In this document: in pieces, positions 11,255-45,000 of the stretch
How positions within the stretch are numbered: position 1 is the stretch's first letter
How the letters are laid out: every line of letters starts with the position of its first letter
Origin: Phoronis australis
Lineage: Eukaryota; Animalia; Phoronida
DNA length: 64,000 nt
NCBI GenBank assembly: GCA_002633005.1
Contig: NMRA01000102.1
Location: 1-64,000, forward strand
Direction of reading: 5' to 3'
The notes under the pieces: model-generated
Database searches by the model: none
What the model saw: the letters and a program-made list of their open reading frames with translations, nothing else
What the model was told of the DNA's origin: nothing
Translations under genes and position numbers: made by a program

Positions 11255-11561
11255 GTTTTCATGTGATAAGTAGCTGCATAGTACTTTTTTACCATTTTCA
11301 AGTTCTGTACCTTAGCTACTATCAAACATTTATAAAATTGTAGGCCTTCTCAACAGTATTGGAATCCTTTTGAAAAATGAAACCAGGGTGATTCAGGCAA
11401 ATATTTTTGTTCAAATAATTGTCAAGATTTTATCGTATTTTGAATGTTAAAATGACCGTTTGACTAATGCTGAACATTTAGGTAGTCACTGACCCTCTGG
11501 ATAATAATCCATTTGGCCAGGTGACCACTTGACCAGTACTGCAGTCACTGATCAACATTAA

Positions 11562-13244
11562 AGGAGAATGCCACCCGATTTAATTAGTCATTTTGCCATC
11601 TTAATCGGTCTATATCCACATCGCCTCGCATACGGTTGACCTTACCTTGCCAAGAGGTGTCGCGTTAACCTGTGAGGAAGGTGAGAAACGACGCTAGCGA
11701 CGTCAGTGGTTCATATGCAGAGTGAATGCTGCTGTGTTGCGGTGCATCGTTCCCGCTTGTTCGAACTAAGCAGCTGCGAGGAAAGCGGGTATATCGTTTT
11801 TTTTTACTTCCTCGAGAGTCCGAAATGCTTAGGAAGTGGCTCATGGTAGTGAAGAATGAAATGTACGCTGTAAATAGCAAGTATGAGGCCGTGAAACATC
11901 TCCATGTCTGTGGCCTGCAGATGTCGACAGTGCCTGACGAATGCCGGCTTACCAAATAACTCCATACGTTCCGTTGTCTGAGCTTGTTCACGGCGCCTCT
12001 CTCGTATTTCTTCATCACTGTATCCTGTTCAAATTGATAGCCTGTAAAACTTAACGATCCACCTGCGAAGTCGGGACTGATGAGCTCTTGCTCGTCCTAA
12101 GTCGGGATTGCGAGTTGCCATGTTGGCGTTTATTACTGAGCGTTCTGTTTCAAAATGAATTATTCTCACCCTAACCAATACTTATATAAAACTGAAACAA
12201 AGTCTGTCTAATTAGATGCATTTATAATGCCTTTGGAGTGTTCGTGAGTGCAAATGATTTGAGAAGCCAGCAATGAATAAATCACTGTGTTACCAGCTTT
12301 AGGTGCAATAAAACTAATTGATGGGACACCGAGGCCGTGTGACTGCTAATTTAGTGTTTGCTGGCAGAAACTGTTGTGAAACAACTCGATTTCCATCCCA
12401 CGGCCAGGTGTTAGGGGAATCTTTATTTACATTTACATTACTCAAATAATGATTGTCAATGTACAACTTTTGCCCTGACGGTGCTGTGGCCAAAGCGGAA
12501 CCTGTACTCGCGGCCCCGACGAGTATGTAGATTTGCAGTTTCGTGGCTAATTCACCAACATAATCAGGTGCACATTACTTTGGCTCACTAGTATAGTATT
12601 TTCTTGACTGGAAGTTTGGTTTCCACTGAACTAACTTTGGCTGGTTTATGTTCGTGATGTCTGATCAGTTTTCGAGCCACTCACTGGCCGGGATAACGAG
12701 TCAATCCGGCCGGCCGCGACGGGCCTGATCGGGCTTCGAGCCACTGGCCACGATAACAAGCGTTTGTGTTTAGAACTCAAAAAATCACAAGTCTAAACAA
12801 CACAGATCTAGGTTCTCCTGTCTGTATCTCACGGAAAATACTTCGAAATTATCTCCGAACAGACCCCAAACTCCTGCTACAGACCTTATTGGCCTGCCAA
12901 ACTTTGTAGGCTACGGTGTGTAAATACCAATAAATCCGTAAGAGGGAAATAAAACAACACATTTTTATAAGAACTCGGTGTATTTTTAAGGATTTACATA
13001 GAAGTTTGATGATTTACCGGGTATTGGTGTTAAACGATGACTTCAAGCGATAAGCTGACACCAGTAACCCGTGTTGTGAACTGCTGAACAGACTGCGTGT
13101 GAAACTGATGACGTCACTGGATAATTTCAACACCTCCGTCTGCCGTCAGGTGTCAGGTAATGCAACCGTACGTGTCGTTATGGAGTAGAAATACTCGATC
13201 TAAATTGATACAAATTAGGTTGTTTTTTTGGGTGGCATGCTCCT
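11562..13244 (+). mobile_element. Kolobok-like non-autonomous DNA transposon with decayed THAP, copy 1
   Basis: TTAA on both sides (11558-61, 13245-48). TIR AGGAGAATGCCACCC / GGGTGGCATGCTCCT (14/15). Decayed THAP at about 11720-11960 (C-x4-C, FF.LP...W, VC). TTAA TSD, RR..YY ends and THAP together fit Kolobok. Confidence 0.8.
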
Positions 13245-18000: not shown

Positions 18001-18111
18001 CTGCATAACAAATTGTATCTAATGAGACAGACTTTGTTTCAGTTTTATATAAGTATTGGATAGGATGAGAATATAAATACTTAGGTAAATAAAACAACAA
18101 GAATGGATCAA

Positions 18112-18149
18112 CTGAAATTTTCGGATATAATAACGTCCTTCGTCAACAG
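18112..18149 (-). ncRNA. Minimal hammerhead-like motif at Penelope 3' end
   Basis: CTG TTGACGA A GGA-cgttattata-TCC GAAAATTTC AG, downstream of the GIY-YIG stop. Confidence 0.5.
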
Positions 18150-19259
18150 AAACAGAAATAAAGTAAAATCAAACACTACATGACAATTGACATTTAAGAT
18201 GTGGTGTAATGAATATGATAAATTGTTGCGGAAAAAAATCAGTGATATGATTTTAGAAGTTTTTATGTTTAATCCATGAGGTTCTAGTGTATTGAGCTTG
18301 TCTATCCAATATTGTTCTCTTTGGAGTCTGTGAGGTGTTGGAGTTTTTCTATTACTTGTACAGAAAGATCTTGAACATTATGATTTTTGGAATTGAAATG
18401 ATTACCTATAGTATCAGAAATGTTTTTATGTATTATGTTAAATCTATGATTACGAAACTGAGTTTGTAGATTATGTTGAGTTTGTCCTACGTATTGGATA
18501 GAACATTTTTTACAAGTTATAAGGTAATTAATATTGTTGGTGGTGCAAATCAGAAAAATGTTTTATTTCAAAGTTTTCATTGGTTTGGGAAGACTGGAAA
18601 AAAGTGCTATCGTTGATAAAGTTACACATTTTACACCTAGTTTTGTTACATTGTGTGTTGCCAGTAGGTTTGTCAGTTTGGTGTATATTGTCGATATTAG
18701 CTTTAACTAAATAATTTTTTAGATTTTTACATTTTCTCCAAGAAATTATAGGTAGATGAGGAAATAGGTTTTTCATTTGAGGGGAAATATGCAGCGTGGA
18801 AAGATGTTTCCTGAAGACGTGGCTAATTCCGTTTAAACATGGATTGAACCATAGATTATAGACAACAGATTCGCAACTCCGGCATTTTCTTACGTGCCAG
18901 CTGAACTCTCGTGACCTTTCTGGTACAGTTTCCAGTTAGTGTATTTTGACGAGAAATATTTGCATCTACTTTACTGTCCAAAACAACAAAAAAATATTAA
19001 TTTCGGTATTGAAACGCTTTTCAAAGTCTTTCAATAGTAGAAGTGTTGGTATCGTGAGTACTTTTGGCAATGCTACTGGTAATTAATTACGAAATTCAAA
19101 CTTCGGTGCCGACTGATTATCTCGTCTGCTTGTCCAATAACAGCATAGTTATCAGACAGTTAGTGATTTATGGTTCACATAGGCCTACTGAGAAAAGTAC
19201 GAAAGCATGTTTATAAATCAACATTCTCAAGTGAGCAGTTCTTCTGGGAATTGTTGAGT

Positions 19260-19316
19260 GGCCCTTAAAAGGGCCGTTGGTTGTAGCTATAGCGTGAAAT
19301 GGTTCTTAAAAGAACC
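19260..19316 (-). terminator. Two tandem histone-mRNA-type 3' stem-loops
   Basis: Minus strand: GGTTCT-TTTA-AGAACC (19316-19301) and CCAAC GGCCCT-TTTA-AGGGCC ACTCA (19275-19260), followed by the purine-rich CAGAAGAACTG. Confidence 0.75.
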
Positions 19317-19326
19317 ATTGAATAAT

Positions 19327-19637
19327 TCAACATAAATCGCACAGTATACCATGCTCACTCAAGTACTGAAGGTCCTCTTCATTCAAGTTTTCATCTGGGA
19401 AGGTTGGATGAAAACAGAGGAGATGACAATATCGATAACAGTTGTAACACCTTAAATATATATTACCGTTCACCAACGTTGTCACGAACTCTGCATCATT
19501 CAGTTCTTGTTCCTTTTTCCACAATCCTGAACTGTAGGGAAAGAATGACAGACAACACAACGAATCAAATTTCGAAAATCATCGCCTTCGTATGATTCCT
19601 TTTTGCTGTCACCAGAATGATGTTCTCCAACGTCCAT
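19327..19637 (-). pseudogene. Small PHD-finger-like passenger ORF (about 103 aa, one frameshift near 19520)
   Basis: Joining ORF-track frames 19500..19736 and 19327..19560 gives MDVGE...IRCVVCHSF...YLRCYNCYRYCHLLCFHP...GILCDLC*, a C4-H-C3 spacing. Confidence 0.65.
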
Positions 19638-22600
19638 CGTAAAAAATCGATGTTGCAAGTGATGGTTCAGGTTTTGTGCCGCATACAGTCGACCTGAATA
19701 ATTGAGTATGTAACCTGCTGTTGAATTGTGCGGCATACAGTCGACATTAATAATTGAGTATGTAACCTGCTGTTGAATTGCAAGATAGATTTTGACAGGT
19801 CCAGGTGCTTATTTCTGAAGTATTATTGTAATCTTTATTTATGTTAAAGGTTTAACTAGCGTCCTATTTATTTGTACACGATTCAGTGTGAAGTTGTTGA
19901 AATCGCTGATCCAAATCCTGGCCAAATGTGCGCATTATGCTGAGACCAACCGTCTGATCAGGGCCACCGAAGAGTAATTTGGTTAATTCGCTCACTAGAC
20001 TATGGCTGAAGGTCCTCATGAGGACAATAGTTCACCAGTCACTACCTTTGGAAGAAATTTAGCGGACATTTTTCGTCAAAAAGATTACCACATAGCTTTC
20101 ATCAAAACGGAGAAAAGAAAAATGGATTTGTGAAGACAGGATTAAGTAGTAGACCTACCAGGGCCTCTTAAAAAAAACACCCATCTTCGAAGTGACGTGA
20201 ACAAATGTACAAATTCCTTTTGGAGTAACAACTTCCATTCACGTTCACAGGAGGAGTTAACTTTTCCTCCCACAGCAGATTTTTGGGGTCTTCGTACGCT
20301 ATGAAAGCTTATCCCTTTGCATTTCGCGTGTATGGCGGAACAACCGGCCACACAGCAGCCGACCCTGATTAGCAGACGATGTACTTGCCGGAAATTGCAC
20401 CAGCAAATTTAGCCAGGTGTTGCCAGTGAATAATGACGTAAGGGCTTGTGCGCAAGATCACAGATTTCGTCCATTGAAAGTATATGGAGTTGGCGGTCCA
20501 TGTACTATATAGTCTATGATTGAACATAGTTATGAATGAATGGTATTCTATTAGTAGTATTGCTTTTAGTTTTAGTTCTTAAAGATTCATTTCGTGTGAT
20601 TGAATGGACTTTGTCAAACTGTTTGTGTTTAAGGTGTAAGGTGAAATGACGTTGAACTAGATAGTACTTGAGTTCTTTTAAACGATTATTAAAGGAAGTC
20701 TCTTCTGAACAAATGCGTCGAATTCTTAGGGCAAGGCTATATGGAAGGCTTTTCTTGCAATGAAAGGGATGACACGAGTGATATGACAGGTATTGGTGTT
20801 TGTCAGTTTCTTTACAGAATAAGTCAGTTTCTAGTTTATCATTATTAAGGGTGACAGTTACATCTAAAAATGAGACTTTACTTTGAGAAATGTCATGAGA
20901 GAACTTTATAGTAGGGTGAAATTTGTTAATATTTTCTAAAATTACATCTAATTTTTGTGGGCCATGGGTCCAGATCATAAAAATGTCGTCAAAAATTAAT
21001 GTACCTTAGCCAGAGAAGAGGTTTTTCAGAGCAGGATTTGATGAAGCTGTTTTCAAGATTTTCCATAAGAAGTTTGGCAAAAGTAGGAGCAACCCTAGTG
21101 CCCATAGCTGTAGCTAACATGTTCAAGAAGAGAGCGAATAAAAGATGTAGGTACATTAGGATTGTTACGTTGACTAAGAAACTTGGTACAGGCTTCTATG
21201 CCTTCATGTTGAGGAATATTAGTGTATAAGCTTTTAACATCAAGAGTTACGAGAAGGGCATTTTTAGGTAAATCACTAATGTTTTTAATTATATCAAGCA
21301 AATGATTCGTATCTTTAACATATGAAGGAAGGGTGAAGACAAATTGCTGAAGATGGTAGTCGGCAGTAGGGCAGTTGTTGCTGGCTATAATTGGGCGTCC
21401 AGGATTACCTTATTTGAGAGTAACTTATTTTGAAACAGAACGCAGAATAATAAACGTCTACATGGCAACTCACCCGGCGCCAATCCTGACTTAGTTAGTC
21501 AAGAGCTTATCCGACGAAGACTTCACGGGTCGGATCGTTAGGTTTCACAGGCTATTAATTCGAACCGGAATACACTGATCAAGAAATACTGGAGAGGCAC
21601 CGTGAACATGCAACGGAAAGTATGGATAGTTCTTTGGTGAGCCGGTATTCGACAGTTGACGAAATGCCTGCGACAGACACGGAGATGTTTCACGGCCTCA
21701 TACTTGCTATTAACAGCGTACCTTTCATTCTTCACTACCGCAAGCCACTTCCTAAGCATTTCGGGCTCTCGAGGAAGTCGAAAAAACGATATACCCGCTT
21801 TTTTCGCAGCTTCATAGTTCGGACAAGTGGGAAAGATGCACCGCGATATAGCGGCATTCACTCTGCAGACGAACCACTGACGTCGCTGCGTCGTTTCTCA
21901 ACTTCCTCACAGGTTAACGAGACACCTCTCGGCAAGATGAGGTTGACCGTATAAGAGGCAATGTGGATATAGACCGGTTGTAACGGTAAAAAAGACTAAT
22001 TAAATAGGGTGGCATTCTCCTTTAATGTTTTCAGAAGCATTTGATGCATTTTGCACCACCTAGTGGCCATTTTTTTGCTGTTTTCCATCTTATTTTTTGC
22101 CATGTGTTCCATTCATTCACCAAACCACTGTATGGATGATTATGAAATTTGACATACGTGTACCTTCGTACAGCTCCAACTACAGTGGCTCCTCCCAGTG
22201 GCAGTTTTTTTGGTCAGTGGCTGTATCTGCTAAACCCTCTGCAGGACCTTTGTTAATTTTTTGTTTATTTGTTTTCTTTGTTATCTTTGGAGTTTGGCGA
22301 TGAAATCTTTCCGTTTTTAGATGAATTAGATGTAGTGCACGCCTCCTAGTCGCTGTTTTTATTATATTTGAGTCTGTTTTTAGCGAAACCAATCTTAGGA
22401 TAATTATGAAATTTGTTACATATTTGTTCTTACTATAAAGAGGACAGCCGACAATAATTTTTTAATGGCACCGACTACTGTGGTGTCTCCTAGTGCATAT
22501 TTTGCATCTGTGGCTATGGTTCCTAGAGGCAATTTTGCCTTAAGTTTGTATCTCTGAAGATTTTAGATGGATTTTCATGAAATTTGGCAAATAGCTTTCG

Positions 22601-42024: not shown

Positions 42025-45000
42025 CCGTATTCACCCTAATAAGCGCCCATGCCCCTATTAAGCACCCCCCACGCGCATTCAGACTTTGCTAAAATAAGCA
42101 ACCAGTCCATGAACGCTGTGTACATGCGAAAATGCCTTACCTACAGCCAGTTGTAGTATATAAAATAGTCACTTACTTAGAGACGTGGTTGGTTGTTGAC
42201 AGACGTTTCGACCTGGTCCGTCAGGTCTTTGTCGATGAATGAGGGATTTCCCGCCTTTTGCTCGTTAAGAATGCTGGAGTACACGGGCGGTAAGTGGAGT
42301 CCTCTGTCCCGGTTTGACAGTTGATGTTTATGGCCTCTTTGAGCTTATGAGTATGCCAACTTTGTCCCTTGGCTAGGATCCTGGATGATGCAAGAGGGAT
42401 GGTATGCCCAGTCGCCAAAATATGTTCCCTAACGGCTGTTGGTCTGTCTAGTTTCAGATGTTCTTTGAATCTGGTAAGGAAAGGTCTCTTGGTTTCTCCG
42501 ATGTAGGTGTGGTTGGTATTTCCTACAACGCTGCAAAGTACTTAGCTGGTGTCCTCAAGCCTCTCCATGGTAACACCATACATAGTGTACGTAATAGTTC
42601 CGACTTTGTCAAGAACCTGGTAGTTCCTGTAGGACACAAGTTAGTGTCATATGATGTCAGTGCTCTTTTCACTAGTGTCCCTGTAGACAATGCCCTCACC
42701 ATTGTACGCAAGAGATTGTCTGATGACCCCACTCTTAGTCTTCGCACTGAATTGTCTGTTGAGCAAATTCACCAGCTATTGGGTTTTTGCCTTAATACTA
42801 CATATTTCTTATGCAACAACAGCTTCTATCAGCAATGCCATGGAGCTGCTATGGGATCCCTTGTGCCTCCTATCATAGCCTACATATACATGGAAGAGTT
42901 TGAACAGACTGCTCCACCTTCACTGATCACATTCAACAGTATTGACAACTGCATTCAATTCACCATGGAGACAGAAATCAACATAACCTTACCGTTCTTG
43001 GATCTATGCATACATGTGGTCGATAATGACTCCATCAAAATCAAGATCTACAGGAAACCGACACATACGGAACAATACCTCCAGTTTTCTTCCAACCAAC
43101 CCTTAAAGAAAGAAACATTCTGTCGCCTGTACCCTCCTGGATAGAGTTGATCGTTACATCACTGACTACCGTGACTATGTCGAAGAGATGGACCACGTTG
43201 AAGATGCTTTGCGAGCTAATGGATACCAGGAATGGATGTTTACTGACCCCCCAAGTCGTAAATCTACTGAAAAACTTGATGCTCCCTCCGTTACCATCCC
43301 ATACATAAGAGGAATATCTGAACACCTACAACACAACTGCAGAACCCATGGAATTTCCTCTTACATGAAACCTATCAACACCCTCCGTTCCCTACTAGTC
43401 AGACCCAAAGACTCAACCCTGATGGCTAAACAATGTGGGGTCATATACCAGCTGAAATGTGACCAGGATCCCAACCACACCTACATTGGAGAAACCAAGA
43501 GACCATTCCTTACCAGATTCAAAGAACATCTGAAACTAGACAGACCAACAGCTGTGGGGGAACATATTTTGGCAACTGGGCATACCATCTCTCTTGCGTC
43601 ATCCAGGAACCTAGCCAAGGAACAAAATTGGTATACTCATAAGCTCAGAGAGGCCATAAATATCAACAGTCAGTGCCCCCTCTTAAACCGGGACAGAGGA
43701 CTCCACTTACCCCCCATCGTACTTAACGAGCGAAAGGCGGGAAATCCCTCATTCATCAACAAAGACCTGGAGACCAGGTCGAAATGTCTGCCAACAACCA
43801 ATCACGTCTCTAAGTAAGTGACCATTTTACATACTACAATGCCTCTAGAGACCAATGACGAACCTATGCTCCAGACTACAGCCGGTTCTAAAATTCTCCA
43901 GTAACGTCTTCAATTTACCAGTAAGATCCGACAGTCCTGAAAAATCATTGTGCGTGGAATTTGTGGATCACGAGTATCGCTAGCCGTGGCTATACACTTC
44001 AAAATTCCGCCATGCTTCGAAAAGATCTTGCGAGGGATGTGTCCTATTATGATCTGGCCTTTCAAAATAGATGCAGCGTACTTGTGAAACAGATTGTATT
44101 GTATCTTTCCCGTACAGATTTTCTCCCTCAACAGGAATCTAAATTTCTTTGCATACGCGAAAACCGCGAATCGAAGACTAATAAAACTTGACCTTTGTTA
44201 ACAGCACGTGGCCAGGAAGCGCGCACTACATACCTGTCATCGAAGATTAGTCTTCGGGAACTATCTATTCATGAAACGGGTAGCATAACATCAGCAAGAA
44301 ATAAATACTGGCACTTATTTCCGAAAGTTTTTAATATCGTAAAAACATTTGCGTTATTTTTAGGAGGAATTATCAAATTAATCATAATAGGTGTTTTTAA
44401 AGTCAAAATGACCCACTCATAGTGAACTCGTCTGCAGCCTTACACCCCCCGAATCTTCCGAAAAATAACTGTTAGACTGTCATGCATCCAGTCACTCGGC
44501 GACTCAGCATCGGCCTTACCGAGACAAGTCTCTAACGATGAGATCAACAAGTGCTAAATAAAACATGCTCTGCTTTACCGTTGGTGCTAATTTCTTTAGC
44601 TGCCCACCTAGATTGTTACGTCACGTTTACTCTGGCAAATTAACTCTGATGACACACATGCTCACCCACTCACTCACACAATACGCAGACGAACTTCAAA
44701 ACAAACGTCACGTGATAACAACACGTGTGTTCGTCCAGAGATTTTTCTTGTGATGCGGGGTACGATCTAGCGCAGATTTGGACTTAATATGAAGTTAATG
44801 CCGACTCCACAGGAACCTAAAAATCTTAGACGCCATTTAGAAAACTTAAGGAGGACTTCTGGTAATTTGTTGAGTCTAAACTATATTTTTACTCAAGTTG
44901 ACCTATCAGCAATTGCGAGGCAGCGTCCCATCAGTTGGCGAGTTTTCGCACTTGGATTTTCTGAAAAATTCTTGTAATTTAACAACAAAGTTTGACAGGA

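Follow-up and report, generated by a model that had tools for sequence, protein, structure and literature searches.

Can a gene carried by a DNA transposon end its messenger RNA in the way that a histone gene does? This question is raised by a locus within the window analyzed here (the whole 64,000-nt stretch of DNA), in which a preliminary description had placed, inside a P-like element, an intronless PHD-finger ORF followed by two histone-type hairpins. According to the available part of PMC1924863, hairpin ends without poly(A) are known from histone genes alone, and the accessible text of PMC2781718 reports no evidence of SLBP binding non-histone RNAs. The observation itself was confirmed: tandem hairpins and a frameshifted PHD-like ORF lie together inside a P-like element. 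The functional claim, namely that the PHD mRNA receives a histone-type ending, stands at about even odds.

A P-like element inserted into a decayed retroelement

The element and its insertion site comprise the following features.

18850..20518, minus strand: copy of a P-like DNA transposon (1,669 bp), in which no catalytic transposase domain was found
18843..18849, plus strand: left copy of the target site duplication, 7 bp
20519..20525, plus strand: right copy of the target site duplication, 7 bp
18850..18860, plus strand: terminal inverted repeat at one end, 10/11 bases matching the opposite end
20508..20518, minus strand: terminal inverted repeat at the opposite end, 10/11 bases matching
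20165..20366, minus strand: frameshifted THAP domain remnant (Pfam THAP E 0.014 on its second half, under the cut-off)
19834..20031, minus strand: possible last exon of an upstream gene (uncertain), a 55-codon open frame
19674..19780: 52-bp tandem duplication immediately 5' of the PHD start, with low read depth
20514..21409, minus strand: reverse-transcriptase (RT) part of a decayed Penelope-like retroelement (Pfam RVT_1 E 0.0005, under the cut-off)
18108..18849, minus strand: GIY-YIG part of a decayed Penelope-like retroelement (Pfam GIY-YIG E 0.0011, under the cut-off)

The boundaries at 18850 and 20518, with the 7-bp duplication and the nearly matching ends, agree with the earlier description of the element as P-like, and the combination of a THAP domain with a 7-bp target duplication fits the P superfamily as characterized in the available part of PMC4168063. 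No P-type catalytic transposase is present in the 1.7-kb window copy. On the minus strand, the THAP remnant is followed by the 55-codon frame, which has no credible Pfam match and is trailed by two AATAAA hexamers (at 19872 and 19839), and then by the PHD-like ORF. The THAP start codon has been lost in the window copy at base 20365, where the reads of three RNA runs differ from the window in 336/364, 310/329, and 199/207 cases, and the base found in these other copies restores an in-frame ATG to the THAP ORF. Based on the low read depth over 19674..19780, other copies probably differ there as well.

The element was inserted within a decayed retroelement ORF, splitting the RT part from the GIY-YIG part, and it is on this anatomy that we call the host retroelement Penelope-like. 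The empty insertion site was recovered in 45, 31, and 7 reads of the three RNA runs and in one contig; a 4-nt duplication at 20532-20535, just outside the right target duplication, is absent from these empty-site reads. Elsewhere in the window, a second THAP-bearing element, which we take from its termini to be Kolobok-like, occurs in two inverted copies (21415-22029 and 11554-12168, 82% alike over 629 nt) that both terminate at the same TTAA, and a further Penelope-like GIY-YIG frame (43107-43814, Pfam E 0.0021, within 42315-43817) overlaps one arm of a 205-nt inverted repeat.

Two histone-type hairpins behind the PHD-like ORF

The features at the 3' end of the putative gene are as follows.

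19327..19637, minus strand: PHD-like (C4HC3) ORF, intronless, ~104 codons, frameshifted near 19522
19301..19316, minus strand: histone-type stem-loop 1, starting 10 nt after the stop, without a purine tract behind it
19260..19275, minus strand: histone-type stem-loop 2 with canonical flanks (Rfam RF00032, 35.4 bits)
19236..19246, minus strand: purine-rich tract at HDE spacing, the purines beginning 14 nt behind stem 2

Both hairpins lie where the preliminary description had put them, 10 nt after the stop and then 25 nt further on (51 nt past the stop for the second), and, as it had also noted, both stems are fully paired in spite of differences between them at two base pairs (four letters). 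The comparison that it had proposed with the Rfam Histone3 model succeeded in part: hairpin 2 passes (35.4 bits, gathering score 34) and is the sole Rfam match in 64 kb, whereas hairpin 1 remains under the cut-off (20.8 bits, E 0.011); the plus strand scores 15.0 bits, against these values of 35.4 and 20.8 bits on the minus strand. Of the two, only hairpin 2 is followed by a purine tract at histone spacing (8 purines in the best 10-nt window behind hairpin 2 vs. 6 behind hairpin 1).

A chance origin of this signal is excluded, since these two are the only strict GG..CC hairpins of histone form in the 64-kb window, none occurred in 300 simulated 64-kb sequences, the 111-nt hairpin region folds with a z-score of -4.07 (0/200 shuffles as good), and a flanked degenerate motif has just 2 matches in 2.9 million viral contigs. 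The two viral matches were themselves rejected as chance, as they lie inside long reading frames and fall under the Rfam cut-off at the match.

In human histone genes, the stem-loop is found 22-67 nt behind the stop, with a modal HDE spacing of 16 nt (10.1101/720235, available part); hairpin 2 is within this range at 51 nt and hairpin 1 is outside it at 10 nt. The stem and flanks of hairpin 2 equal those of the C. elegans histone mRNA ends given in the accessible portion of PMC1924863, the loop alone being different. Histone mRNA is cut 4-5 nt behind the stem (PMC10730174, available part), and the cut predicted for stem-loop 2 is at ~19255. Over the 477 nt up to the element end, there is no AATAAA or ATTAAA, and weak poly(A)-like hexamers are found at 19215 (TATAAA) and 19172.

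A family of small PHD-like proteins

The ORF runs from an ATG at 19637 to a stop at 19329-19327, with 308 coding nt and one frame change near 19522, and its cysteines and histidine are ordered C-x2-C ... C-x2-C-x4-H-x2-C ... C-x2-C. Coordinates and translation thus reproduce the ~103-aa intronless minus-strand ORF with one frameshift and C4-H-C3 spacing that had been described. The encoded product is a C4HC3 finger and not a histone, and no histone coding remnant was found, in keeping with the earlier statement that no histone ORF is present. At the frameshift (19522), a contig from another copy has 4 extra letters. A splice acceptor at this position was considered and dropped because a close relative, P0002, reads straight through the frameshift of the window copy.

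Searching with the C-terminal piece of the window protein retrieved 7 representatives, and a profile search expanded these to 27 proteins, mostly of 107-111 residues, from ENA, Logan, and JGI, some of which are named from the bivalve Dreissena polymorpha. All 8 C4HC3 ligands are conserved, each in 24-26 of the 26 sequences aligned, and so are aromatic residues three positions before Cys3 (24/26 rows) and two before His (26/26), which might form a cage for a histone tail. Ahead of the first Cys, the family alignment shows an acidic, S/T-rich motif with almost no variation. One member, P0003, passes the Pfam PHD_NSD model (27.7 vs. 23.9), to which 8 of 11 family rows have E-values of 0.1 or lower, and the window piece itself matches Pfam PHD weakly (E 0.1). 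The predicted structure of P0015 has a pLDDT of 85, and 11 of its top 12 structural-match titles name PHD (best Z 3.9, rmsd 3.5 over 65 residues). Foldseek with the same model gave a weak best E of 0.14, and a sequence search of solved structures a best E of 0.11; Slx1-type fingers also matched in both. Leads from an Atlas search were all below 0.9 and mostly PHD clusters. Taken together, these matches place the window ORF in a real protein family for which PHD-like is a fair label. A PHD match, as expected from the preliminary description, was obtained above a curated cut-off for P0003; the matches of the window piece and of the structural model were weak.

In the P0003 cluster, five contigs of 0.7-9.2 Mb carry five intact copies of 110 residues that are 88-98% alike, which points to a family that has expanded recently in the eukaryote assembly concerned. 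No longer, fused form of the finger was seen among 7,996 scored candidates, which is weak evidence. DNA of the relatives was not detected in viral contigs with two alignments, nor in prokaryote genomes with P0002; a match of P0033 in viral contigs was rejected as chance. We found no description, in the literature searched, of a conserved family of ~108-residue stand-alone PHD-like ORFs on transposons.

Other copies of the element and probable selection on the ORF

Reads of three raw RNA runs, together with a contig set, all under the same species label, were aligned to 18750-20620. The runs yielded 2,541, 2,288, and 1,662 aligned reads covering all 30 bins, of which only 15, 25, and 12 are at least 99% alike; most are 85-97% alike and reach both element ends. 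Four small DNA runs contain 24-34% each of the words of the element. The P-like element is thus a multicopy family that is present in RNA. Many joints link ~19070 to 20344-20407 and represent miniature deletion forms; no splice-like joint is found among the best 15 of 17. These miniature forms (18850-19077 joined to 20344-20518) are abundant in RNA, with depths at the ends several times the internal depth.

The hairpins, too, are found outside the window copy. A 296-nt contig (19218-19513) shows that at least one further copy contains both without gaps; it has 13 substitutions, 11 of which can be placed, 9 in the ORF, 2 in the flanks, and 0 in the hairpins, and 2 of which are unplaced. At base 19317, other copies differ from the window in 37/41, 51/51, and 8/8 reads, and with their base hairpin 1 acquires the AAC 5' flank of hairpin 2 and loses the longer stem of the window copy. 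The same AAC 5' flank occurs in C. elegans histone mRNA ends in the available part of PMC1924863. The copies compared are only ~4-5% apart, and hence too close to show constraint on the hairpins.

For the ORF, we used a variant table restricted to the best-supported 40 of 486 rows, 18 of which fall inside the PHD-like ORF, and split these at a frequency of 0.8, a threshold chosen after the rows were seen. Of the 18 listed, the nine variants that segregate among other copies are synonymous in 8/9 cases, whereas, of the nine that are nearly fixed in contrast to the window, 1/9 is synonymous and 8/9 change a residue, with an expected synonymous share of 0.19 for all changes and 0.35 for transitions. 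The corresponding p-values for 8/9 synonymous (8e-5 at 0.24, 9e-4 at 0.33) are only nominal, because the variants are linked, only best-supported rows are included, and a few loci with several alleles would give the same picture. This synonymous bias elsewhere, combined with residue changes in the window, suggests purifying selection in other copies and decay in the window copy. The PHD-like gene hence looks selected in other copies and dead in this one, in line with both the constraint and the probable death of this copy anticipated from its sequence.

Search for RNA ends at the hairpins

A transcript end near 19255, which would follow from the proposed processing, was not borne out by the three RNA runs, whose library selection is unspecified: no pile of read ends occurs there over the multicopy background, and depth does not drop, being 67-72 behind hairpin 2 in runs X5 and X6, compared with 54-64 across the two hairpins. 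Reads of the hairpin region occur in both mate orientations. The sole end pile, seen in run X5 only, consists of 8 molecules that begin at 19286, between the hairpins, and does not fit the predicted cut. Read depth and read ends consequently give no support for processing at hairpin 2. The missing drop is weak as a refutation, since library selection is unspecified and intronic copies give read-through; such intronic copies could account for the whole RNA signal.

Relatives with DNA context

A metagenome scan provided four loci with DNA context out of 159 pattern matches.

L001, 826-3169: stand-alone PHD-like ORF, then a transposase-like region
L002, 3088-4099: PHD-like ORF, with a transposase ATG two bases behind its stop
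L003, 1-2462: PHD-like ORF, with a transposase ATG two bases behind its stop and DUF7869 above the cut-off
L004, 2737-3523: PHD-like ORF, then a transposase-like region

The downstream regions of L001, L002, and L004 resemble that of L003 (DUF7869), and a Dreissena gene model, P0030, also runs into a DUF7869-like transposase; by their motifs, the L001-L004 elements may be of the Sola type. Where the transposase ATG stands two bases past the PHD stop (L002, L003), a two-cistron message is likely. This arrangement of a PHD-like ORF directly before a DUF7869 transposase was not found described in the literature searched. None of the four loci, all of a different PHD clade, has a stem-loop behind the PHD-like ORF.

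In a midpoint-rooted tree of 29 rows (with P0030 cut to 108 residues, and P0004, P0006, P0008-P0011, P0013, P0028, P0035-P0037, L002, and L004 left out), the window protein and its two closest proteins, P0001 (62% identical) and P0002, form a long branch that is separate from the remaining 26 rows (support 99/98). As 4/4 relatives with DNA context lack the stem-loop and carry a different transposase, the hairpin is at most a trait of the divergent clade of the window. The earlier proposal of a histone end borne by the transposon family therefore gains from the multicopy family and from the hairpins in another copy, but does not extend to these relatives.

Candidate mechanism and alternative explanations

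The best explanation, to which we assign a probability of roughly 0.5, is a lineage-specific borrowing of SLBP/U7 3'-end processing by the PHD-like gene of a P-like transposon. It builds on the anatomy of the element, the protein family, the anatomy of the signal, the presence of this signal in another copy, and the synonymous bias of the ORF, all of which are documented here, and on a layout in which hairpin 2 is in sense orientation to an intronless ORF, 51 nt behind its stop. The histone pathway would then form the 3' end of the mRNA from a second, intronless gene of the P-like family. In this scheme, both hairpins would be recognized by SLBP, and the purine tract at 19246-19236 would base-pair with U7 snRNP; cleavage would take place ~5 nt past stem 2 and leave a message that has no poly(A) tail. 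Hairpin 1 would provide an additional SLBP site rather than a cut site. In the main clade, the PHD ORF may be the first cistron before the DUF7869 transposase, a position from which it would need no 3' end of its own; in the divergent clade, it would be the last gene in a THAP element and have acquired a histone 3' end. The weakest step is the last, in which the PHD-like protein would aid the transposase on chromatin in dividing cells or oocytes. More tentatively, and at somewhat less than an even chance, a non-histone mRNA of a transposon would end by SLBP/U7 and thereby tie a chromatin-binding helper to S phase or oocytes, with the same finger serving as an accessory in two unrelated kinds of transposon that end its message in two ways.

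The main rival is passive carriage, in which an ancestor captured a 3' piece of a host histone gene by the PHD stop (perhaps twice, or once followed by duplication) and the mRNA ends elsewhere, for instance at the TATAAA at 19215. The absence of the signal from 4/4 relatives with context, the unbroken read depth over the hairpins, and the closeness of the compared copies (~4-5% apart, too close for constraint) all agree with such a capture, which we nonetheless consider unlikely: there is no histone coding remnant and merely 10 nt from the stop to the first stem, the two stems are different and each fully paired, both lie on the right strand and at the right spacing behind an ORF with synonymous bias, and no canonical poly(A) signal follows them. 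The other three rivals are less likely. SLBP binding to the hairpins might serve RNA export, storage, or the control of translation, or the hairpins might act as an SLBP decoy, the RNA being left uncut by U7; reads do continue past hairpin 2, and hairpin 1 lacks a purine tract and lies nearer the stop than any human histone stem-loop, but the purine tract at histone spacing behind hairpin 2 makes binding without cleavage a distinctly unlikely reading.

Two further readings set the RNA signal or the mobile copies aside. Variant frequencies of 0.18-0.70 at a depth of 50-95 would fit the few haplotypes of a domesticated host locus, whose alleles rather than mobile copies would be under selection and of which the window would hold a decayed transposon relative. 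This is very improbable given that the reads, for the most part 85-97% alike, extend to both ends, that many deletion forms join these ends, that four small DNA runs hold 24-34% of the words each, and that a clear target duplication and an empty site are found. It is more improbable still that the hairpins are palindromes acting at the DNA level, as binding sites or as quasi-palindromes perfected by template switching, with an accidental resemblance to the histone signal: loop, flanks, and spacing fit an RNA signal on one strand only, and the flanked motif was met just 2 times in 2.9 million viral contigs, even if the window base at 19317 lengthens stem 1, as a hairpin-templated change would. 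If the borrowing of histone 3'-end processing by the PHD-like gene is true, a transposon gene would be the second client of this pathway, outside histone clusters, a mobile element would gain replication-coupled or maternal expression, and such a transposon mRNA would escape poly(A)-selected sequencing.

Comparison with known systems

No description of a transposon gene with a histone-type end was found in the literature searched, with Repbase and subscription journals outside the search. The closest counterpart of the signal is the metazoan histone mRNA 3' end, which shares the 6-bp stem, the 4-nt U-rich loop, and the AAC and AC flanks (PMC10730174, PMC1924863, and 10.1101/720235, each in its available part), as well as the distance of hairpin 2 from the stop, the purine tract behind it, the intronless gene, and the lack of a canonical poly(A) signal. 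Here, in contrast, the ORF is non-histone, the hairpins are in tandem, the gene is borne by a transposon, and the ending is recognized from sequence alone. The element itself resembles the P superfamily (P, Galileo, 1360) in its 7-bp target duplication, N-terminal THAP, terminal inverted repeats starting with CA, and many internally deleted forms (PMC4168063, available part), but the window copy has no catalytic transposase, its inverted repeats are very short, and it carries a second gene for a PHD-like finger, which the available part of PMC4168063 does not mention.

The elements that pair a PHD-like ORF with DUF7869 (L001-L004) encode a homologous stand-alone finger of ~108 residues and differ in that the transposase starts directly after the ORF, which is not followed by a stem-loop. 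A PHD finger is associated with a transposase in RAG2 as well. Rehavkus transposons likewise combine a PHD finger with a transposase, according to the available part of PMC6446971; there, however, the finger is inside the transposase, whereas in the window it is a separate small ORF with a 3' signal of its own.
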